This document shows positions 3,475-21,543 of a DNA stretch of 64,000 nt, one piece after another; the stretch's first letter is position 1; the number at the start of each line of letters is the position of its first letter. A program made the position numbers and the translations under genes. The stretch comes from an uncultured bacterium. Lineage in GTDB: Bacteria; Zixibacteria; MSB-5A5; GN15; FEB-12. The stretch covers positions 64,001-128,000 of the forward strand of contig CBDVDR010000005.1 of NCBI GenBank assembly GCA_965372795.1, read 5' to 3'. The notes under the pieces are model-generated. The model saw nothing but the letters and a program-made list of their open reading frames with translations, was not told the DNA's origin and did not search any database.

Positions 3475-3816
3475 ATGTGTGACAGGGTAAAAAAGTTTAG
3501 AGAAGAACGTGAGCAATTAAATGAAATAGTATTGGGACAGGATGACATAAATATCAAAAGATTTTTTTCTCTTGATACTGCCGTCTATCGAGCGGGTGCT
3601 CTTGATGCAAAGACTAAAGAACTGCTTGGGTTGGTGGCATCATTAGTATTGCGTTGTGATGATTGTATTACTTACCATGTTATAAAGGTAAAAGAAGAAA
3701 AGACAACTGATGCTGAATTTAGTGAAGTTATGTCAATTGGTCTTGTTGTTGGAGGATCTATCACTATTCCGCATGTCAGAAGAGCGTATAAACTCTGGGA
3801 AGATTTAAATAATTGA
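3475..3816 (+). CDS. Carboxymuconolactone decarboxylase / AhpD-like protein
   Basis: GALDAKTKELLGLVASLVLRCDDCITYH (CxxC..H); ATG 3475 after GGAGA. Confidence 0.88.
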   Translation: MCDRVKKFREEREQLNEIVLGQDDINIKRFFSLDTAVYRAGALDAKTKELLGLVASLVLRCDDCITYHVIKVKEEKTTDAEFSEVMSIGLVVGGSITIPHVRRAYKLWEDLNN

Positions 3817-3828
3817 GGATTTTAATTT

Positions 3829-4734
3829 ATGAAAAATGTTAAAAATTTATTGACCCTGTTATTAATTATCTCTGCTATTTCTCTTACAACAAACTCATTT
3901 GCACAAACCGAAAAAGAAGTGCCGCTAATTGTTAAGCAGTATAGACAATCATACAGTTTTATCAGTATGTCTGATTCTATTTATACGTCTCAATCCGAAT
4001 TTATTTTACCTGATGGTTTTTCTTATCCAGAGCCTAATAAAATGACTTCTTTTCAAAACTGGATATCCAATTTCCCTTTGTGGCACAAATACAAACCAAT
4101 CGGCATCTGGAAAGGGAGCAAAAAATATGAATATGGCGAGGTTGCTCGTGGAGTTCATCTTCCCTGGACCGGAAAAATATATACCGATCTGAATTTCCCG
4201 ATTCGATTTTTGGGAGAATTTGTTCTTTACAAGAAGAATGATCTTAAATTTTCATTTACACCTATGAAAGGCGATGACCTTTTGTATTCAGATTGGCTGG
4301 AAAGTATACCAAAATATAGTGGGCAAAAAGAAGTTATGCTGGTTCCCGATATGAAACGCGATGCCAGCGAAACTGAGTTTTTTAAATTTATGCACTTTTG
4401 CATGGTCAATAATCATTATTTTAATCTGACTAGAAATTGCGATTCCTTATCTGAAGCTGAGGTTATGCCGGGAGATATGTTTATTGCCCGTAATAAAAAT
4501 GGGCGTAAAGGACGCGTACTTTTTATTATGAATATGATTCAAAATAAAAAGGGAAATAAATTATACACATTTGCAACCGGATGCGAGGATGATGCCTGTG
4601 ATATGCATATCCCTCTTATGAATAATGACCGTAACAACCCCTGGGTAACTTTGGATCAGGTTAAAACCTATGTTGAGCCATTTGAACAAAGAGGTTTTTA
4701 CAGATTTAAATTGTTATCAGACTTTGATAATTGA
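3829..4734 (+). CDS. Secreted protein, DUF4846-like
   Basis: Signal peptide; LPDGF…SFQNWISNFPL and PGDMFI…G segments resemble DUF4846 from memory. Confidence 0.55.
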   Translation: MKNVKNLLTLLLIISAISLTTNSFAQTEKEVPLIVKQYRQSYSFISMSDSIYTSQSEFILPDGFSYPEPNKMTSFQNWISNFPLWHKYKPIGIWKGSKKYEYGEVARGVHLPWTGKIYTDLNFPIRFLGEFVLYKKNDLKFSFTPMKGDDLLYSDWLESIPKYSGQKEVMLVPDMKRDASETEFFKFMHFCMVNNHYFNLTRNCDSLSEAEVMPGDMFIARNKNGRKGRVLFIMNMIQNKKGNKLYTFATGCEDDACDMHIPLMNNDRNNPWVTLDQVKTYVEPFEQRGFYRFKLLSDFDN

Positions 4735-4741
4735 GAGTAAT

Positions 4742-5926
4742 ATGAATATAAAAAATGATATTTTAAATAAAGTTAAAGCCCAACATAAAGAACAGATCAA
4801 ACACCGCCGTCATATTCATCAGAATCCGGAAATTTCTTATCAGGAAATAAAAACTACTGCTTATTTAAAACAGGAAGTAAAAAAACTTGGGTTGAAAATA
4901 CTCCCGTTAAAAATGGAAACAGGTCTACTTGCTGAAATAAAAGGCGCTCACCCGGGACCAACCATTGCAATCAGAACCGACATTGATGCTTTACCGATTA
5001 CCGAGCAAACGAAGCTTCCTTTTAAATCAAAAAATATAGGCTGTATGCACGCTTGCGGACATGATATGCATATGGCAACAATATTAGGGACCGCCAAAGT
5101 TCTGTCTCAAATGAAAGAACATCTTCACGGCAATGTAAGATTTCTATTTCAACCGGCCGAAGAGGTCCCGCCCGGAGGCGCCAAAACGATGATTGAACTG
5201 GGTGCCCTTGATGGGGTTTCGATGATTTTTGGTCTTCATGTTGATCCGCATCTTGCAACCGGTAAAATCGGGCTTCGTGATGGGATAACAATGGCGGCAG
5301 TTACCGACCTTGATATTATTATTCATGGCAAAGGCGGTCATGCGGCAAGACCGCAATATGCTGTCGATGCAGTAGTGACTGCTACTGAGATTATCGAATC
5401 CTTACAAAAAATAGTATCAAGAGAAACCGACCCTATCTCTCCGGTTGTAATCACCTTTGGAAAAATAGAAGGCGGCACAGCTCGTAATGTCATCGCCGAA
5501 AAAGTTATACTTACCGGTACAATTCGCGCGCTCTCAGCTCAATCAGCCAAGCAGGTGCCGAAATTAGTTAAACGAACCGTTGATGCTATTTGTAAAGCTC
5601 GCGGTGCCAAAGCTGAAATTAATATTCTGGCGGCATATCCGGTGCTGGATAATCATCTGAAAGTTAACAAAATATTTAAAAAGAGTTATGATATATTGTT
5701 TGGTAAAGGGAAAATAGAAGTTACCGACCAGACCTTAGGCGGTGAAGATTTTGCTTATTATCAACAAATAGTACCCGGCGCAACTTTTAGAGTGGGAGTT
5801 ATGAATAAAAAAATCGGAGCCGATAAATCATGGCATTCATCATTGTTTATCGCCGATGAAAACGGATTGATCTATTCAACGGCGTTGTTGGTTGGGTCCA
5901 CTCTTGACTTTTTATCAGACAGCTAA
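4742..5926 (+). CDS. M20 family amidohydrolase
   Basis: RRHIHQNPE, RTDIDALP, MHACGHDMH, FQPAEE, GKGGHAA, GGEDF, WHS; ATG 4742 preferred over the ORF-track start. Confidence 0.95.
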   Translation: MNIKNDILNKVKAQHKEQIKHRRHIHQNPEISYQEIKTTAYLKQEVKKLGLKILPLKMETGLLAEIKGAHPGPTIAIRTDIDALPITEQTKLPFKSKNIGCMHACGHDMHMATILGTAKVLSQMKEHLHGNVRFLFQPAEEVPPGGAKTMIELGALDGVSMIFGLHVDPHLATGKIGLRDGITMAAVTDLDIIIHGKGGHAARPQYAVDAVVTATEIIESLQKIVSRETDPISPVVITFGKIEGGTARNVIAEKVILTGTIRALSAQSAKQVPKLVKRTVDAICKARGAKAEINILAAYPVLDNHLKVNKIFKKSYDILFGKGKIEVTDQTLGGEDFAYYQQIVPGATFRVGVMNKKIGADKSWHSSLFIADENGLIYSTALLVGSTLDFLSDS

Positions 5927-11399: not shown

Positions 11400-12058
11400 C
11401 CGATTATTTTACATTAAAATCCCTTGAAGGATTGCTTGAGGCATTTCTTGCCGGAGTGGTTCATGTTAAACAGAACAGGTTAAAAGTTATAGAGGGAATT
11501 AACCGCCTTGATGATATAGCTCGCTTTACGGATGAAAAGGGTTCAATTGATGATGCAATTGGTGATTGGTTTGCAGATCATTCCCAATGGCTGAATAAGC
11601 AGGATTTGAAGGAAAATGATATTTCACGTATAGGTGGACTTTTAGAAAATATCAGAGGTCATCTTGATCAGAATAAATTAAGTTCTCCTTCCCGCCGGAA
11701 AATCAGTTCAGAAATTGACCGGTGGAGTTCGATGGTAAGTAAAACTCCTAGAAAAGTAGTTTTAAAACGACCTCCAGAACTTAAAACATCAACCGAACAC
11801 GATACTATTGCGATGTATGCCAATCACTTAGATGACATGACCGCTCTTTTCAAGGATAAGGTTGAAGGAAAGAAACATATTCTTTCAATATTGGATGATG
11901 CCTTAAAATCGGCTGTTGACCAAAAGAATAAACAAGCCTTGCTTTTATCGGGGTATATCATATATTATCTCAAACTTGACGGGTACCTTGTCGAGCCTTA
12001 CGTAAAAAGGCTCAAACAAGCCGAACAGTTGCAAAAAGGAGACATGACAAATGCTTAA
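11396..12058 (+). CDS. Hypothetical protein
   Basis: 220-aa ORF, 4-nt overlap with upstream stop, GGAG RBS. Confidence 0.75.
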   Translation: MTDYFTLKSLEGLLEAFLAGVVHVKQNRLKVIEGINRLDDIARFTDEKGSIDDAIGDWFADHSQWLNKQDLKENDISRIGGLLENIRGHLDQNKLSSPSRRKISSEIDRWSSMVSKTPRKVVLKRPPELKTSTEHDTIAMYANHLDDMTALFKDKVEGKKHILSILDDALKSAVDQKNKQALLLSGYIIYYLKLDGYLVEPYVKRLKQAEQLQKGDMTNA

Positions 12059-12299
12059 TCATTTTGAGAAAGCATATTGCCAGGCAATTATTGCACTCAA
12101 GGAGAAAAAATACCGTCAGGCAGCCAGTTGCTTTGAAAATGCGGCACCTTATTATTCCGATAACAAAGAATTTACTTTGTTGATGGAAACAAATAAGATG
12201 CTTTTGGTTGTTAAAGAGAAACTGGCCGAAGAAGAAAATGAAGAGATAATTATAAAGGAGGCGTTCGCGCATGGCAAAGAAACAGAGCTTCTCGGATAA
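12051..12299 (+). CDS. Small hypothetical protein (single TPR-like helical hairpin)
   Basis: AGGAG RBS, overlaps upstream gene, A…K.Y.QA…FE.A pattern. Confidence 0.65.
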   Translation: MLNHFEKAYCQAIIALKEKKYRQAASCFENAAPYYSDNKEFTLLMETNKMLLVVKEKLAEEENEEIIIKEAFAHGKETELLG

Positions 12300-12459
12300 A
12301 TCATCCAAAAAGTCTCATTCTATGAGTTGCCCGGTTTGTCAGGAAGGTTTTCAGTTTATCAAATTTGTGAAGTCTGTCAAGACTGACGTTGGTGCTTGGA
12401 AATTCCGCTCACAAAATATCGGTGTCTGCAAATGTAACCATAAAGAAGTTTACGGCTAA
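12271..12459 (+). CDS. Small basic Cys4 protein, DUF4295/bL38-like candidate
   Basis: AAGGAGG RBS; MAKKQSF…CPVC…IKFVKSVKT..GAWKF…CKC. Confidence 0.7.
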   Translation: MAKKQSFSDKSSKKSHSMSCPVCQEGFQFIKFVKSVKTDVGAWKFRSQNIGVCKCNHKEVYG

Positions 12460-12577: not shown

Positions 12578-14632
12578 TTACTTATCCAATTGGTCTTTTG
12601 GATCTATTGGTTTTCCAGCTTTAATTAAGTCGTGTAGCTTCTGAACTCTTGATTCATTGGGACTCTTAATCTCATGAAAAATCTTTATTGCCTCTTCAAA
12701 ATTCCGTATTGATTGTTCAATGTTTTTAGCTCCATAAAAAGCCTTACCCATTTGCCAAAGTGTTAATCCTTTCTCTGAGGGAATTTCTATTTCGCTGTAA
12801 TAAGTAAGTGCCTCTTCATATTTTAAAATTGCCTGATCCCATCTTTCGTAAGCTCTGTCAACATTACCTAATCCCACCAAACAGTCTACTTCTCCATATC
12901 TATTTTTAATTTTTCGAAAAGTTATTTTAGCCTTTTCAAATAACTTTTCAGCAGAATTAAATTTGTTTTGCACTCGTTGAATATTGCCTTGTGAATAAAG
13001 AGTATTTACTTCACCAAATTCATCTCCAATTTTTTGATAGATCGATTTAGCCTTTTCATAATAATCTCTTGCAGAAACATATTGACGCTTCTGAAATTCT
13101 ATACCACCTTGCGAAAAAAGAACATTTGCGACTCCCTGTTTATCTCCAATTTTTTCGTAGATAGATTTTGCCTGCTTATAAAATTCTTCTGCAGAATCAA
13201 ATTGATATAGATAAAAATCAATATCGCCTTGCGATTTAAGAGTATTTGCTTCACCATGTTTACTTCCAATTTCTTGATAGATTGATTCCGCCCTTTTATA
13301 ATATTCTTTTGATAATTCATATTGATCCTTCTGTAACTCTATGCCGCCTTTTGAAAAAAGAACATTTGCAACACCCTGTTTATCTCCGATTTTTATGTAG
13401 ATAGATTCAGCCTGTTCATAAAATTCTTTTGCAGAATCATATTGATCCAGATAAAATTCTATATCACCTTGTGAGCGGAGCGTATTTGCTTTTCCCAGTT
13501 TACTTCCAATTTCTATGTAGATAGATTCAGCCTGTTCATAAAATTCTTTTGCAGAATGATATTGATCTTTTCGAAGTTCAATATCGCCAAGTGAACAGAG
13601 TGTAGTTGCTTCTCCGAGTTTATCGCCAATTTCTCGGTAGATTGTTTCGGCATGTATAAAATATTCTTTTGCTGTGTCGAATTGTTCCTCGTGCAGTTCT
13701 AAATCGCCCTGTGAAAGAAGTGTGTTCGCTTGACCAAGTTTATTCCCAATTTCCCAATATATTATTTTACTCTGTTCGTAATATTCTTTTGCTGAGTCAT
13801 ATTGGTTCTTCCTATGCTCAATATCGCCTTGTAATTTTATAGTATTTGCTACTCCGAGTTTATTTCCAATTTTATGGTAGATAGTTTCAGACTTTTTATA
13901 ATATATTTTTGCCTTATCATAATTTGATAATCTGTTTAGGGCCTGACCATGCGAAAAATTCAGATTCCCCCAAAACAAATCATCATCAATCTTTATTTCT
14001 CTTATTAAATGAATTTTGTCTAAAGCATTGTTCAATTGATATTTGTATAAATCAACTTGTATCTCCCAAAAAAGACAATAAGCTAAAGCTTTTTTTGAAA
14101 CAAGGGCAGCGAAACTTTGCTCATATATATTTCTTATAAGAGCTTCTATTTTATCATAAGCATAAAATGGAGGATTTAACCAATTTATACATGTATTATA
14201 AAATATATCTTCTCCTTTTTCAGCATCTGCGACCAAAAGATTTCGTATATATTCAATCATCCATCCGGTATCATCAAGGTTTTGATCTTTCCCGTAATTT
14301 GCTGCATTGAAACTTAGTATTTTGTAAGTTTTAGGATCGTTCTCCCACAAATGTTTTTGAAGTATTTTCCGGCTTCGTTCGTGAATGTTAAATCCTTTTC
14401 CTTCAAAAGGTTCAACATAGCTTAACGAAATCAAATCATCGAAACCTTTTATCGATGACTTATCTAGAGTTGCACTCAGATATTTTTCATCAAACCAAGT
14501 TAGAATTGAAGCTGCCCTGACTGCGTCACGAATTTCAGAATTGAGGTTTTCAAGGCTGAACTCCATAACCAGCCATTCCCGCTCTTCATCATTTTTGGCA
14601 TTTTCAAGTTTTGCCAGAAAATCTTCAATCAT
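12578..14632 (-). CDS. STAND-type winged-helix + tetratricopeptide repeat protein (sensor half of split NLR-like pair)
   Basis: N-terminal AVRAASILTWFD…L.SLSYVE…FNIHERSR (WHD-like) followed by about 11 40-aa TPR units (G.ANTL..QGDI…QYDSAKE.YEQA.SIY..IG). Confidence 0.9.
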   Translation of the reverse strand: MIEDFLAKLENAKNDEEREWLVMEFSLENLNSEIRDAVRAASILTWFDEKYLSATLDKSSIKGFDDLISLSYVEPFEGKGFNIHERSRKILQKHLWENDPKTYKILSFNAANYGKDQNLDDTGWMIEYIRNLLVADAEKGEDIFYNTCINWLNPPFYAYDKIEALIRNIYEQSFAALVSKKALAYCLFWEIQVDLYKYQLNNALDKIHLIREIKIDDDLFWGNLNFSHGQALNRLSNYDKAKIYYKKSETIYHKIGNKLGVANTIKLQGDIEHRKNQYDSAKEYYEQSKIIYWEIGNKLGQANTLLSQGDLELHEEQFDTAKEYFIHAETIYREIGDKLGEATTLCSLGDIELRKDQYHSAKEFYEQAESIYIEIGSKLGKANTLRSQGDIEFYLDQYDSAKEFYEQAESIYIKIGDKQGVANVLFSKGGIELQKDQYELSKEYYKRAESIYQEIGSKHGEANTLKSQGDIDFYLYQFDSAEEFYKQAKSIYEKIGDKQGVANVLFSQGGIEFQKRQYVSARDYYEKAKSIYQKIGDEFGEVNTLYSQGNIQRVQNKFNSAEKLFEKAKITFRKIKNRYGEVDCLVGLGNVDRAYERWDQAILKYEEALTYYSEIEIPSEKGLTLWQMGKAFYGAKNIEQSIRNFEEAIKIFHEIKSPNESRVQKLHDLIKAGKPIDPKDQLDK
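13020..13925 (-). repeat. 120-bp tandem coding repeats (TPR units)
   Basis: 120-nt periodicity, e.g. a 44-nt exact match between 13394-13437 and 13514-13557. Confidence 0.9.
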
Positions 14633-15423
14633 TATTTATCTGTCTTTAATGGTAAATTCATAATTACTTTCATAATTGCTTCTGGTCGACCCTTGAAAGC
14701 ATGACATACACCTGCAAGCCAGTTCAGTGGATTCTCCACCTCAATATGACGATTTAATTCTTCAACAACAGGCATCCAATCTTTAGCATCAGGGATTCCC
14801 AATAAAGGATAATGATTACAACAATCACCCCACCCAATATTTTTTATATCTGGTATACATTGACCGGCTACAAGAACTCTCATTTGAGGAGTATCTGAGA
14901 CATGTCCTAAAAATGAATCATCCAACCAACTTTTAAACACACTTGTTGCTTTTTCAAAAGTATCTATAATTATCAGCAGGTTATTATCAAAATTTTTAAT
15001 ATCCTGAAACCATGCGTTTGTTAATATCGATTGACGTATTCTTTTATCTTCTTCCTTTTCAGCTCTTAAGGCAATTTCAATACTGCTTCTATCACCTTTT
15101 AATTTGACGTCTTTAATATTAAGATTTATAGTCGTATGTTCAGAATATGTTGAAACCTCATGTTGGAATTCAGGCAATAGTTCCCAGCCCAGTTTATTTA
15201 CTGATCTATAAAAAATATCTGTAACAGAGATTGTTCCGGATTTGCAATCAAAGCCAATATGAATAAGGTCATCTGGGATCCTATTCTTACAGTCAAAAAG
15301 CAGTTTAGTTTTCCCACTACCACTTTCACCTTCAAAAAATAAAATAGGCTTGTCACAATCGGAACAACATAACTCATCAAAAGCGGAACGTTCATCTACA
15401 TAATCTGCGAAAACAGTTGACAT
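14632..15423 (-). CDS. STAND/AAA_16-like P-loop NTPase
   Basis: Walker A GESGSGKT, Walker B LLIIIDTFE, sensor strand RVLVAGQ, C-terminal GxP (KGRP); TAATG overlap with the TPR gene. Confidence 0.85.
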   Translation of the reverse strand: MSTVFADYVDERSAFDELCCSDCDKPILFFEGESGSGKTKLLFDCKNRIPDDLIHIGFDCKSGTISVTDIFYRSVNKLGWELLPEFQHEVSTYSEHTTINLNIKDVKLKGDRSSIEIALRAEKEEDKRIRQSILTNAWFQDIKNFDNNLLIIIDTFEKATSVFKSWLDDSFLGHVSDTPQMRVLVAGQCIPDIKNIGWGDCCNHYPLLGIPDAKDWMPVVEELNRHIEVENPLNWLAGVCHAFKGRPEAIMKVIMNLPLKTDK

Positions 15424-15431
15424 ATTGTTTA

Positions 15432-15749
15432 TTAGTCCTCTTTAGGTCCGATATCAATCTTACTACCTTTACCAATAATTTGAATTTTCTTTGCCTCTAA
15501 ATCATCACCCTTAATTTTAATCTCACTTTCGTCACCATCGATCTTAACATCTTCAATGTCTGCTTTTGTTTCTCCTGTTTGACCGGTGTCTTTCATCTCA
15601 ACCCCGGCCTCTATGCCATCATTGTTAAATTTAAGAAATAATTTCTTTATTTTTTTGCGATTTGGATAAATTACAACAAAAAATAACACCAAGACTACAA
15701 AAGAAATTAAAATAACTAATTGGGTTGTATCCATATCGAAAATCCCCAC
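15432..15749 (-). CDS. Small single-TM protein with C-terminal beta-repeat pair
   Basis: TM helix aa 11-28, basic stop-transfer RKKIKK, two 15-aa repeats 21 aa apart; its 3' end supplies a GAGGA RBS for the NTPase. Confidence 0.75.
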   Translation of the reverse strand: MGIFDMDTTQLVILISFVVLVLFFVVIYPNRKKIKKLFLKFNNDGIEAGVEMKDTGQTGETKADIEDVKIDGDESEIKIKGDDLEAKKIQIIGKGSKIDIGPKED

Positions 15750-15897
15750 ATGTATAATTAGAAAGTCTTATAACTATTTTTTAATTCTTATTATCCTAAT
15801 ATCTGCCTGCTATAGAGATATATCTCTAATATCATTATATAATATTAAATAGTGAACCAATTATCAATAGATTTTTTCTAGTATTTTGTATTGTCCC

Positions 15898-17766: not shown

Positions 17767-20700
17767 TCATTCATCAGAATCTATTAGTTTTTGAATAGTA
17801 AAGTCAAGTTCAGAAAATTTATAAGGTTTTGAGATGACAGCAGAAAAGCCATACTTTTCATGGTCAGCCAAAATCAAATCATTTGAGAAGCCACTGCATA
17901 CAATTGCTTTAACTTTCGGATCAATACGAAGCAATTGTTCGATTGTCTCTTCCCCCCCCATTCCTTCGGGAACAACGAGATCAAGAACAACCACATTATA
18001 AGGTTTTTTGTTCTTCTTAGCTTTCTTGAACAGCTTAAGGGCTTCTTCGCCATCTTTGGCAACATCAATTTTATAACCATATTTTGTAAAGGATCGAATT
18101 GCAAGATTACGCAATAATTCTTCATCATCCATAATTAAAACAAAACCTTTGTTAACTTTTTTGATTCCTTCAATATGTTTAGGTTTTGTTTTTGTAGCAG
18201 CAGGCAGATAAATTGTAAAGACCGACCCCGTACCAATTACAGAATCAACTTCAATGTGTCCTTCGTGTTTAACTAAGATAGAATACGCCGCCGCTAATCC
18301 AAGCCCAGAATGAGAAGTACGGGTTGAGAAATAAGGGTCAAAAACTTTTCTCAGGTTCTTTTTTGAAATCCCTTTACCTGCATCCGTGAACGAAACTTTG
18401 ATGAATTTTCCATTTTTAACTGGGAGCTTATTTTTTTCAGTAATTAAAATATTGGAAGCAGCTATTTTGACAGAACCACCATTGGGCATAGCCTGGATGG
18501 CATTTTCAACGATGTTATGGATTACCTGACTTATCTGGCTAATATCAATGTTTACAGACTGAAGATTTTTAGCAATTTCCACCTCAGCTTTTATTTTTGA
18601 ATCAGTTAAAGCCAACATGACCGAATCACGCAATAATCTTTCAATTTCGGCGGGTTCTTTTACCAGGTTACTGCCTTCTGAGTAGGTCAATAACTGCTGG
18701 GTTAAACTTCTTGCACGCCAACCCGCCTTCTCAGCTTCGGTCAACACATCAAAAAGGTCATCATCTTCATCAAGGTCAAGTTTTGCAAAAGAGATATTCC
18801 CAAGGATACCAGTTAATAGGTTATTAAATCCGTGAGCAATACCACCAGCTAAAGTTGCAACCGATTCGAGTTTTTGATTATTTAAAAGTTCCTGTTCATA
18901 TTTTTTTCGTTCAATAAAAGTTCCGATTTCAATTGCAAGGGTCTCCAGGAGCTGTTTTTCTTCTTCATGAAAAGATTCTTCAAATTTCAAAGATTTTTCA
19001 TTCTTGCGATAGACTTCAAGCGTGCCGTATTTATCACCAGAGATAGAAAATTTAAAAATTTTATTACAATTTGATTTTTTAAATTTATTTGAAGATATTT
19101 CTCTATTATCGAACACAATCCTAACAGACGAACAATTGGGATAGCGCAGAGACTTCGCAATTAAGTTAGTGATTTCCTGTAAGACGGTATCTTCAGATTT
19201 GTCAAATTGAATAACAAGTTTTGCAAATTTATTTAAACAATTAAGCTGATTAACTTTAATTTTTAATTGTTCAGTTTGTTCTCGAGCAATTTTCTGAGCT
19301 AATTTTTTTTCAGTAATATCAACACCGACACCATCAATATATTGAATTTCGCCTTTATCGTTTTTTATGGCTGTCATGTTTGCTGAGATCCACCGGGAAG
19401 TACCATCTTTTCTTTTTACATAAAGTTCAATATCTTTGGCAATTCCCTTTTTATTAAGAATATCTATCATTTTTTTTCTAGCATCGGGATCGACATAAAA
19501 TTCACGGCTAGAGACAGCAAGCATTTCTTTCTCTGATTTATATCCCGCGGCTTTTAAAACCGTCGTATTGACCGAGATAAGTTTCCCTTTGGGAGTGGAA
19601 CGGAAAATTCCAACCGGTACATTATTCTGTAAGGTCCGAAGTCTGTTTTCCGACTCCTTAATAGCTTCCTCATTTCGCCGCCTCTCAATCGCATTAGCAA
19701 AAATATCCCCAACAAACCTAAGTAAGGAAATCAGTTTTTCATCCCATTCTCGAACTTCCCCTACATCATCAAAAACACCAAGGGCTCCAATTAAATTTTC
19801 TTCAGTAGTAAGCGGAACAAATAAAAACGGTCGGAATTCTTTCTTTTTTAACCAAAGGATTTCAGGCTTTAGATATGACGGTATATCTTCCAAACTTGAG
19901 AATGCCACATTTTCATCTCTTTTAAATTGTTCGAGATAGAACCCAAAAACTTCAATCGGCACATCCTTAAGCAGTTCAATCTGAGAATCTTTTCTTTTTG
20001 CGCACCACTCATGAGAGTTATAGACTTCTTCGAGATCGGGTGAAAAGAGGAAAAGGGAACATCTTGAAACAGATGCAAATTTTGCAATTTCTTTCAGAGC
20101 TTGAGTGATTGAGCGGTCAATTTTATTTACGGGAATATTAATTAATTCTGCCGAAATTGCAGAGATAAGCTGCTCAAAATCAAGCCAATACTTTAGTTCA
20201 TCTTCAGAACGCTGGCGCTGGGTTATATCCAAAACAGTGCCTATCATTCTTGCAGGTTGGCCAGAATCATCAACAAATATTTCCGATTCTGAATGAAAAT
20301 ATTTGATTTCTCCGTCTTCACAAATGATCCCATAATCAGCACCGAATCCTTTTTCACCGGCGGCAGCTTGTTTCATTAACTTTTTAATTCTTTGCCGATC
20401 TTCCGGAATAACATAGTCGATCCATTCATGGTGCAATGGTCCCAATTCTTTGGGGCGTTTATAAAAAGTGTATAATTCATCAGACCAGGTTATTTCATCA
20501 TTGATCATATCCCATTCCCAGTATCCAATTTGAGCAACTCGCCGTGATTCAGCAAACAGGTTATGGCTTTCACGCAAGGCTCTTTCAGCAAGGATAGTTT
20601 CGGTTCTGTCTTCATGGGTGATTATAACATTGATGACTTTGCCATTTGTGTCTTTAAGAGGAAAGATTCGGCTATTAACCCATCGTGCATTAGACTGAGT

Positions 20701-21543
20701 TTCAGAGATGATAGGCTCCAACTCAACATTGGAAAGGATTGTATTTTTTCCTTTTCTAGCTTTTTCAAAAGCTGAGGTATAACCCTGGATTATTGCTGTT
20801 GGATCGGAAAGAATATTATACTGGTCGATTGCTTGATTAGCTATAACATCAAAAAAGTTTTCAAAAGCTTGATTCACTCTAATTTGAAAACCATTTAAAT
20901 CAAAAATTTCAATAGGGACGGGTGATTGCTCAATTATCAGGTCAGCTAATAGTTTTGTTTCCTGAAGCTTCTTTTCCTGATTTTTAATCTGGGTTAAATC
21001 AGTTATTGAAGTACGAATCTGGAAAAATTCTTTCATATCCCCAAAAACAGGAATGCTTTCCAGATAAACATCGAAAATTGAACCATCTTTTTTTACCAGC
21101 TTGAGTTCGCAAAACTGCTTTGTTTTAGAATCTTCTACTTTTTGTCTATGCAGGGTAAAGTGTTTTTTGTCTTTTGAGGATATAAACGGGTTAAAGGTCT
21201 GACCGATAATGCTTCGTTTATCAATCCCTAAAAGGTCGGCACCATGCTGGTTAATTTCGAGGACTTTCCCTTTACTGCAAAATGATACATATCCGATGGG
21301 AGCAAAATCATATAAGTTATAATATCTATTTCTGGAGAGCTCAAGTTCATTTTTAACAGTCTGAAATTCAATACAGTTTTCTTCTAATACCGTTAGAGTT
21401 TCTTTGGTTTCATTTAGAAATTTATTAAACTGCTTTTCAAAGGCTGAATTTAGATTTTTAGTTTTATTTGCAAGAAGTTTTTCTATTTTAGACTGTAATT
21501 GATTTGTTTTCTTTAAAAAATTATTAGATTTATTCACGTTCAA
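17767..21543 (-). CDS. Hybrid sensor histidine kinase (multiple PAS, GAF, HisKA, HATPase, REC)
   Basis: PAS/PAC motifs (DITE, GYWEWD), GAF, H-box AGGIAHGFNNLL, N/G1/F/G2 boxes, receiver VLIMDDE…LDL…KPY. Confidence 0.95.
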   Translation of the reverse strand: MNVNKSNNFLKKTNQLQSKIEKLLANKTKNLNSAFEKQFNKFLNETKETLTVLEENCIEFQTVKNELELSRNRYYNLYDFAPIGYVSFCSKGKVLEINQHGADLLGIDKRSIIGQTFNPFISSKDKKHFTLHRQKVEDSKTKQFCELKLVKKDGSIFDVYLESIPVFGDMKEFFQIRTSITDLTQIKNQEKKLQETKLLADLIIEQSPVPIEIFDLNGFQIRVNQAFENFFDVIANQAIDQYNILSDPTAIIQGYTSAFEKARKGKNTILSNVELEPIISETQSNARWVNSRIFPLKDTNGKVINVIITHEDRTETILAERALRESHNLFAESRRVAQIGYWEWDMINDEITWSDELYTFYKRPKELGPLHHEWIDYVIPEDRQRIKKLMKQAAAGEKGFGADYGIICEDGEIKYFHSESEIFVDDSGQPARMIGTVLDITQRQRSEDELKYWLDFEQLISAISAELINIPVNKIDRSITQALKEIAKFASVSRCSLFLFSPDLEEVYNSHEWCAKRKDSQIELLKDVPIEVFGFYLEQFKRDENVAFSSLEDIPSYLKPEILWLKKKEFRPFLFVPLTTEENLIGALGVFDDVGEVREWDEKLISLLRFVGDIFANAIERRRNEEAIKESENRLRTLQNNVPVGIFRSTPKGKLISVNTTVLKAAGYKSEKEMLAVSSREFYVDPDARKKMIDILNKKGIAKDIELYVKRKDGTSRWISANMTAIKNDKGEIQYIDGVGVDITEKKLAQKIAREQTEQLKIKVNQLNCLNKFAKLVIQFDKSEDTVLQEITNLIAKSLRYPNCSSVRIVFDNREISSNKFKKSNCNKIFKFSISGDKYGTLEVYRKNEKSLKFEESFHEEEKQLLETLAIEIGTFIERKKYEQELLNNQKLESVATLAGGIAHGFNNLLTGILGNISFAKLDLDEDDDLFDVLTEAEKAGWRARSLTQQLLTYSEGSNLVKEPAEIERLLRDSVMLALTDSKIKAEVEIAKNLQSVNIDISQISQVIHNIVENAIQAMPNGGSVKIAASNILITEKNKLPVKNGKFIKVSFTDAGKGISKKNLRKVFDPYFSTRTSHSGLGLAAAYSILVKHEGHIEVDSVIGTGSVFTIYLPAATKTKPKHIEGIKKVNKGFVLIMDDEELLRNLAIRSFTKYGYKIDVAKDGEEALKLFKKAKKNKKPYNVVVLDLVVPEGMGGEETIEQLLRIDPKVKAIVCSGFSNDLILADHEKYGFSAVISKPYKFSELDFTIQKLIDSDE

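Follow-up and report, generated by a model that had tools for sequence, protein, structure and literature searches.

The DNA considered here (the window) is a 64,000 nt stretch of contig CBDVDR010000005.1 (positions 64,001 to 128,000; assembly GCA_965372795.1) from an uncultured Zixibacteria bacterium, and it contains a three-gene module in which a short motif is common to a small membrane protein and to the P-loop NTPase encoded next to it; all features of the module lie on the minus strand. The gene of the small membrane protein (15432-15749) encodes 105 aa if translated from the GTG at 15749, however the protein is probably 100 aa long, because its homologues begin in alignments at the position matching the ATG at 15734. 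Eight nucleotides separate the stop codon of this gene from the start of the second gene (14632-15423), which encodes a 263 aa AAA+/STAND-like NTPase; the stop codon of the NTPase gene in turn shares 1 nt with the ATG of the third gene (12578-14632). In the 684 aa product of the latter, a conserved N-terminal domain of about 230 aa precedes tetratricopeptide repeats (TPRs), and at all loci read this TPR protein is a separate, translationally coupled gene. The GC content of the operon is 33%, compared to 33-43% nearby.

The NTPase is predicted to be a P-loop NTPase with Walker A and Walker B motifs and a STAND/ORC-like fold. Walker A spans aa 31-39 (15307-15333), with G32, G35, G37, K38, and T39 invariant in two alignments; the Walker B strand and the acidic residues that follow it span aa 149-157 (14953-14979), with the strand itself at 149-154 and D154 and E157 invariant. 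The AlphaFold2 model of the protein has a predicted local distance difference test (pLDDT) value of 88, and Foldseek aligns it with probability 1.0 to the archaeal ATPase 2qen, MalT (8bob_C), subunits of ORC/Cdc6, and CED-4, at TM-scores of 0.35-0.55. The protein from the window reaches no Pfam cut-off (AAA_22 19.7, AAA_16 14.9, and NACHT 13.7 bits); some of its relatives do reach AAA_16. A preliminary description of this locus had termed the protein a STAND NTPase, which agrees with the fold matches to MalT, CED-4, and ORC but is weakly borne out by the sequence, where the Pfam hits stay below their cut-offs. The NTPase belongs to a large family, as a profile search of 1.84 billion cluster representatives returned 1232 relatives at E<=1e-3, 169 of these at E<=1e-30. 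Between Walker A and Walker B, as placed both by the invariant columns of the two alignments and by the AlphaFold2 model, lies the NTPase copy of the motif, termed R0 (aa 101-117, 15073-15123 as a 17-mer; aa 103-117, 15073-15117 as a 15-mer). It is situated between the helices 84-97 and 124-142; residues G110 and I115 are invariant in the two alignments and N113 is nearly so. The first half of R0 (residues 99-108) is modeled as an exposed loop with pLDDT below 50.

The small protein starts with a hydrophobic helix (aa 3-22 of the 100 aa form, 15669-15728), which has an acidic residue at position 2-3 and is followed by basic residues that would place the remainder of the protein in the cytoplasm. 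After this transmembrane (TM) helix comes a predicted β-hairpin unit (aa 29-47, 15594-15650; strands 29-37 and 40-47), a conserved block in which E42 is invariant, and then two further copies of the motif: R1 (15513-15563 as a 17-mer; 15513-15557, aa 65-79 of the 105 aa form, as a 15-mer) and R2 (15450-15500 as a 17-mer; 15450-15494, aa 86-100 of the 105 aa form, as a 15-mer), exactly 21 residues apart. The AlphaFold2 model, made with an alignment of 39 sequences, contains the helix 3-22 at pLDDT 92-95 and six strands at pLDDT 70-80; two of these strands are in the block after the helix, two in R1 (58-66 and 71-75 of the 100 aa form), and two in R2 (79-87 and 92-96). The motif is read as a 17-residue strand-turn-strand unit, carried by the NTPase on a flexible loop and by the small protein on its putative cytoplasmic tail. 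Apart from noise attributable to TM helices, no Pfam, NCBIfam, PADLOC, or PDB-sequence family was found for the small protein; the noise-level matches among 39 small proteins include Flp1_like (28 of 39), RexB, and Hok/gef, and in a single protein Curlin_rpt (E 0.018). Structural searches with the model gave no Foldseek match at E<=0.001 and, in a wide VIA-align search, no match at Z>=5, with most alignments covering the TM helix alone. The modeled strands lie at positions that a parallel, stacked solenoid would require. Among the top 50 chains of that comparison the HET-s(218-289) fibril 2kj3 is the sole one aligned to the repeat region (residues 54-100), although the alignment (Z 2.6, root-mean-square deviation 5.2 Å, 45 residues) is within noise.

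A single-sequence word search with the small protein of the window found only the protein itself, whereas a profile of eight small proteins retrieved 76 homologues of 81-151 aa. These share one layout: the acidic residue at position 2-3 and a helical, hydrophobic segment of about 20 residues precede basic residues and a short conserved block, from which a variable linker leads to the repeats. The usual pattern of the motif is approximately h-x-h-x-x-N-x-x-h-G-x-x-[NQ]-x-I-x-V, and the connector of four residues behind it in most cases contains a second Gly. Two copies exactly 21 residues apart are present in 58 of the 76 homologues; three copies, each 21 residues after the previous one, are seen in P0195 (145 aa) and P0214 (141 aa). 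On average across the family R1 is basic (mean charge +1.3) and R2 acidic (-1.7), and with the two repeats placed in register there are 114 opposite-charge pairs against 19 same-charge pairs, counts that are not independent as the proteins are related. In shifted registers (-5 to +5) at most 85 opposite-charge pairs occur and the ratios fall to 0.5-2.2, with the exception of register +1 (68 opposite and 6 same). The 21-residue period and the charge complementarity, which had been described from the window alone, thus hold for the family as a whole.

Within the window, R0 and R1 are identical at nine of 15 positions, and of the six positions that differ four are, by eye, reversals of charge; in the alignment of R1 with R2, five positions are oppositely charged. 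These details, together with the coordinates, residues, and 21 aa spacing given in the preliminary description, were found to be correct when re-read on the sequence. The specificity of the match was examined by ungapped BLOSUM62 comparison of the 17-mers with all 17-mers of the 29,694 six-frame open reading frames (ORFs) of the same genome (2.6 million residues). Self matches aside, R0 is the best match of R1 in the whole genome and R1 that of R0, with a score of 46 where the next best for each is 36; the R0-R1 match exceeds chance. The comparisons of R2 with R0 (score 27) and of R1 with R2 are within the noise of this genome alone, and the reality of R2 is instead based on the 21-residue spacing conserved in 58 of the 76 homologues.

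The relation between the two proteins is also seen in other genomes. When each of the two repeats of the small protein is compared without gaps to its own NTPase at nine loci, 17 of the 18 scans place the best match at the homologous R0 site, and in eight of the 18 the expected number of equally good chance matches in a protein of that length is <=0.01. A position-specific scoring matrix (PSSM) was built from 112 distinct small-protein repeats, excluding those of the window, and scanned on the top 150 NTPase representatives; of these, 110 cover the R0 site and have no large extension, and are referred to as plain representatives. The best 17-mer lies at the R0 site in 102 of the 110, with a median of +7.6 bits compared to -17.3 bits for the best match elsewhere in the protein. 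A fortuitous or compositional resemblance between two low-complexity, β-prone segments that have no functional link could be argued from the scores of R2 against R0 and of R1 against R2, and from the result of a short local hidden Markov model made from the repeats of other loci, which ranked R0 sixth of the 29,694 ORFs, with matches that were mostly partial (the method is too weak for 17-mers). Such a coincidence is contradicted by the genome-wide reciprocal best match, by the 17 of 18 cognate scans that converge on one site, and by the 102 of 110 PSSM hits, and is considered extremely improbable. The earlier claim that the TM protein and the NTPase carry a common motif is accordingly sustained: the motif is real, conserved, and specific to this pairing of genes.

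What occupies the R0 site in other relatives of the NTPase gives an indication of its function. None of the 15 representatives that cover the site and have a C-terminal extension of at least 80 aa contains the motif (best PSSM score -8.6), and their segment displays a different, helix-like pattern; a sixteenth C-terminally extended representative, which is truncated at its N-terminus, does not have it either. Five of the C-terminally extended representatives were run against Pfam, and four of them were found to carry EAD7 (PF19960) and one PNP_UDP_1. N-terminal fusions to TIR_2 (P0055), Trypsin_2 (P0094), and Peptidase_C14 (P0085) likewise do not have the motif, and in P0038, with an N-terminal Trans_reg_C domain, no more than a degenerate copy is present. 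P0066 carries EAD7 (aa 110-171) as an insertion right at the R0 site. Effector-associated domains (EADs) are described as small non-enzymatic modules found on the core NTPase component and on separately encoded effectors, and are thought to recruit effectors (PMC7159879). Because the motif hits the R0 site in plain NTPases, is absent in extended or fused relatives, and is replaced at that very site by EAD7 in P0066, R0 is best read as a putative effector-recruiting adaptor. The distribution of fusions, EAD7, and motif would then imply that an effector is attached to this NTPase in one of three ways: by direct fusion, through EAD7, or through the β motif to a small TM protein; the stand-alone NTPase with the β motif is the commonest form. 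Fusion of the small protein itself to the NTPase was considered for some relatives and rejected; the N-terminal extensions examined are Trans_reg_C, EAD7, TIR_2, Peptidase_C14, Trypsin_2, or unassigned, and are not of the TM-plus-repeats type. Two further arrangements were noted. P0145 has an unassigned insert of about 110 aa at the R0 site, and in a metagenome locus with a distant relative (L014:581-1936) a trypsin-like peptidase is fused N-terminally to an NTPase that has no R0 insert; no small TM gene is present upstream, and a gene with the N-terminal domain of the TPR-type protein follows.

The loci compared with the window (L002-L009, L013, and L014) were obtained from scans of species-representative genomes and metagenome contigs, and a scan of metagenome contigs with the broad alignment contributed at least two loci. 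Relatives of the window's NTPase share 36-59% identity with it. A full NTPase with the motif can be read, together with the DNA upstream of it, at nine loci (the window, L002-L008, and L013); these derive from a Candidatus Brocadia metagenome-assembled genome (MAG), a MAG labelled Paraglaciecola, four Anaerolineae/Chloroflexota MAGs, an Acidobacteriota MAG, a metagenome contig (L013), and the window. The order small TM gene, NTPase gene, TPR-type gene is conserved in nine of nine, so that the upstream partner with a matching motif which the preliminary description predicted for homologous NTPases is present at every one of them, and its two peculiarities, a motif inside the NTPase and an effector reduced to a bare TM helix, are correct and general in the family. 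The conserved N-terminal domain of the TPR protein begins the gene after the NTPase in L002-L008, L013, and L014. The module is sporadic, as expected for a mobile conflict system: whole-genome searches that scored only six candidates per genome gave no locus beyond the starting genomes, one among the 285 genomes of the phylum to which the window belongs and one among 401 sampled in the phylum of genome G285. Three candidate loci (L010-L012) were rejected as members of the family, since they are matches to Walker A only. Some loci depart from the standard layout. The NTPase of an Anaerolineales locus (L004:3617-4789) is split over two frames (ORFs 3617-4276 and 4277-4789) by a frameshift or an assembly error; a Syntrophobacterales MAG (L009:4010-4534) has a truncated NTPase remnant without Walker A and the C-terminus, which keeps the motif and has no small TM gene upstream. 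The third gene of the Acidobacteriota locus (L008:4746-6263) retains the N-terminal domain, however a segment resembling sigma-70 region 2 (E 0.0017, below the cut-off) and a helix-turn-helix-like tail replace the TPRs, which suggests a transcriptional output or a different sensor.

The reading best supported is that the module may be a three-gene sensor-effector system of the NOD-like receptor (NLR)/STAND conflict-system type, composed of a TPR sensor, a separate oligomerizing NTPase, and a minimal membrane effector that are connected by β-solenoid or amyloid-like templating; the chances of this interpretation are considered to be even. The sensing of a ligand or trigger by the TPR protein would drive NTP-dependent assembly of the NTPase, and this assembly would gather several R0 loops. 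In AAA+ proteins of the ORC/Cdc6 type, the stretch from the second strand to Walker B, the region of the initiator-specific motif, carries a motif that faces the ring center; if this correspondence holds here, the R0 copies would stand side by side. Stacked copies of R0 could then provide a template, or a cooperative binding platform, for the R1 and R2 rungs of the small protein, which would fold in register into a β-solenoid or amyloid-like stack with Asn/Gln ladders and salt bridges; the clustered N-terminal TM helices would damage the membrane, with regulated cell death or abortive infection as the outcome. An amyloid or β-solenoid mechanism agrees with the period of 21 residues, with the pairing of charges in register, and with the N/Q/G pattern. 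Oligomerization, cross-β structure, templating, membrane damage or killing, and a role in defense are features that we infer by analogy with the pairs of Bell-domain proteins and NLRs linked by bacterial amyloid signaling sequences (Bell/BASS-NLR) and with the Bab/Agp system, both compared below.

The same pairing could also serve as a constitutive membrane tether, in which R0 joins a stably folded R1/R2 β unit as its third rung or edge strand, so that the small protein anchors the NTPase-TPR machine to the inner side of the membrane and the output is signaling or regulation and not killing. The shared motif, the conserved trio, and the logic of an adaptor site fit this arrangement equally well; AlphaFold2 folds the tail as a monomeric β unit at pLDDT 70-80, the basic residues after the TM helix put the tail on the cytoplasmic side, the sigma-70-like (L008) and OmpR-type (P0038) relatives suggest regulatory outputs, and the locus lies outside any defense island. 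A tether is nevertheless considered unlikely: relatives that carry EAD7, or genuine death or effector domains (TIR, caspase, trypsin, PNP_UDP), at the R0 site or at their termini argue that the partner is an effector and not an anchor, the small proteins with three repeats and the strict 21-residue period suggest open-ended stacking, and the sporadic distribution resembles that of conflict systems.

Several observations weigh against reading the module as an amyloid-type death system, and the interpretation given in the preliminary description is supported in part. The neighbors of the module in the window are housekeeping or signaling genes, PADLOC gives no match, and the locus is not a defense island. 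The sigma-70-like region of L008 and the OmpR-type DNA-binding domain of P0038 hint at transcriptional outputs in some relatives. The window's own copies of the motif are very rich in K, D, and E, and the N/Q ladder positions of most relatives are missing from them. The group extended by EAD7 may represent a single clade and hence a single evolutionary event; furthermore, P0150 has both an N-terminal EAD7 and the motif, so the mutual exclusion of the two is not absolute. Co-variation between R0 and the repeats, suggested as a check in the preliminary description, was found in part. Cognate pairs of repeat and R0 have a score sum of 276 against a permuted mean of 206 (standard deviation 27), a value reached by 0.6% of permutations, uncorrected for phylogeny and composition; this excess comes mostly from the split between a low-GC clade (the window, L002, and L003) and a Chloroflexota-type clade. 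A locus-specific signal is clear only between these two main clades; in the low-GC clade R1 of the window and R2 of L002 do prefer their own R0, but in the Chloroflexota-type clade other pairs score better than the cognate one. Lastly, the second half of R0 (residues 111-119) is modeled by AlphaFold2 as a helix in a block of pLDDT 87, and the invariant residues I115, A118, and L119 fit helical spacing; at rest it may be that just the first half of R0 is free. Among the structural arguments, this is the chief one against the view of R0 as a simple, free β tag.

The modeled inclusion of the second half of R0 in the NTPase fold would also suit a form of regulatory mimicry, whereby the repeats of the small protein imitate R0 and occupy its binding site in the NTPase oligomer or on the TPR protein, holding the system off or buffered until a trigger arrives. 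The identity of the motif in the two partners would be expected from this, as would the finding that the differences between R0 and R1 in the window are mostly charge reversals, which are anticipated for mutual competition or pairing. Mimicry is considered quite improbable, as it does not account for the TM helix, for the two or three in-register charge-paired repeats, or for the EAD7 or effector domains that stand in for the motif in relatives. A complex prediction for the NTPase with the tail of the small protein (score 0.02, mark 0.32) is evidence for neither side.

If the templating interpretation is retained, the module would work like an amyloid signaling pair of the BASS or HET-s type, but it differs from these in the internal position of the sensor copy, the absence of a Bell bundle, the split sensor, and an NTPase that is not a recognized NACHT or NB-ARC protein. 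In the HET-S/NWD2 pair of Podospora (HRAM) the effector has two pseudo-repeats and the NLR has one; a rung is 21 residues long, and repeats stacked on each other form charge pairs. The number of repeats, the length of the rung, the charge pairs, and an N-terminal membrane-inserting helix are the same here; in contrast to HET-S there is no HeLo domain, the repeats abut without a 15-residue loop, the sensor copy is internal, and no sequence relationship exists. Curli follow a comparable nucleator-subunit logic with CsgB and CsgA, which contain repeats of about 20 residues around Q/N-x-G-x-G-N-like cores; they are however extracellular and have another repeat register, and Curlin_rpt matches just the one small protein of 39 mentioned above.

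The Bell/BASS-NLR pairs are close to the module in several respects. They are encoded by adjacent, collinear, and nearly abutting genes; a short β-prone motif rich in G, N, Q, and hydrophobic residues is present on the C-terminal region of a small protein and on an NTPase sensor with TPRs; the effector sometimes has two or three pseudo-repeats and the sensor one; and the effector begins with a hydrophobic helix with an acidic residue at position 2-3 (bioRxiv 10.1101/2020.01.06.895854). The motif of the present module is inside the NTPase domain (aa 101-117 of 263), whereas that of the Bell/BASS-NLR pairs is at the N-terminus of the NLR. The small protein does not have the five-helix Bell bundle (the AlphaFold2 model has one helix and six strands), the NTPase and the TPR protein are encoded by separate genes, the NTPase is below the Pfam cut-offs for NACHT and NB-ARC, and the hosts include Planctomycetota and Acidobacteriota. 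A comparison by eye, which covered the examples given for BASS1-10 in the PMC8086366 supplement, showed no pattern in common with the motif. The published screens examined NLR N-termini only (bioRxiv 10.1101/2020.01.06.895854), which would explain why a family with the motif embedded in the NTPase was missed.

In the BASS11 antiphage system Bab/Agp of E. coli, a protein of about 109 aa starts with a hydrophobic helix and has an amyloid motif in its C-terminal part, and the adjacent gene encodes a TPR-containing sensor with the same motif, an arrangement that corresponds to what is seen here; the system was proposed and shown to act by abortive infection. It differs in that Agp lacks an NTPase and has an N-terminal motif, and in that Bab has a small helical domain (bioRxiv 10.1101/2024.11.07.622273). 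EAD-coupled NTPase systems use the same principle of one small non-enzymatic module on the core NTPase and on a separate effector, and in close relatives of the present NTPase EAD7 is found at either terminus or inserted at the R0 site; however, EADs are helical and of about 60 aa or more (PMC7159879), while the element described here is a 17-residue β motif paired with a bare TM helix. No EAD was found by Pfam in the three proteins of the window.

Amyloid signaling that connects NLR-type sensors to death effectors has been described in fungi, in animals (RHIM), and recently in bacteria; to our knowledge the sensor-side motif is a terminal appendage in every case described. A literature search, which took in passages of selected papers but not the preprint supplements, turned up no account of such an internal motif. 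It is tentatively proposed, at somewhat less than an even prospect, that the module represents an unrecognized class of prion-like immune signaling in which the nucleating amyloid motif is inside a loop of the NTPase domain, the assembly of the NTPase ring itself makes the cross-β template, and the executioner is a single TM helix with a two-rung, charge-zipped solenoid; the class would be widespread, with hundreds to about a thousand sequence clusters. If this is true, there would be a direct structural link from NTP-driven oligomerization to the formation of a template, at the site where relatives insert the death-fold-like adaptor EAD7, and amyloid signaling would be extended to Planctomycetota, Acidobacteriota, and other lineages. 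Existing motif screens miss the family, which includes about 1232 NTPase clusters and at least 76 small-protein clusters. The effector, of about 100 aa, is very small and easy to test. Even if the β assembly were a plain heteromeric sheet, the motif would constitute a new type of short adaptor for prokaryotic conflict systems.

The module is flanked by genes for a GNAT acetyltransferase, an ADI/DDAH-type enzyme, a large PAS histidine kinase, a DUF4388 protein, TsaD, and others. PADLOC assigned no family to the NTPase or to the small protein, and the third protein matches generic TPR models only. Upstream of the small gene a candidate promoter-like site (15839-15867, minus strand) agrees with the consensus at 10 of 12 positions, although such sites in the region are not above shuffled expectation. 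The histidine kinase (17767-21543, minus strand) is a 1258 aa multi-PAS hybrid protein with a receiver domain, and is encoded two genes upstream of the module on the same strand. On the other side, a 62 aa ORF on the plus strand (12271-12459) is convergent with the end of the TPR gene; it contains CxxC and CxC pairs, has a weak match to DUF7385 (E 0.02), and overlaps an 82 aa ORF (12051-12299) with a weak TPR-like match.

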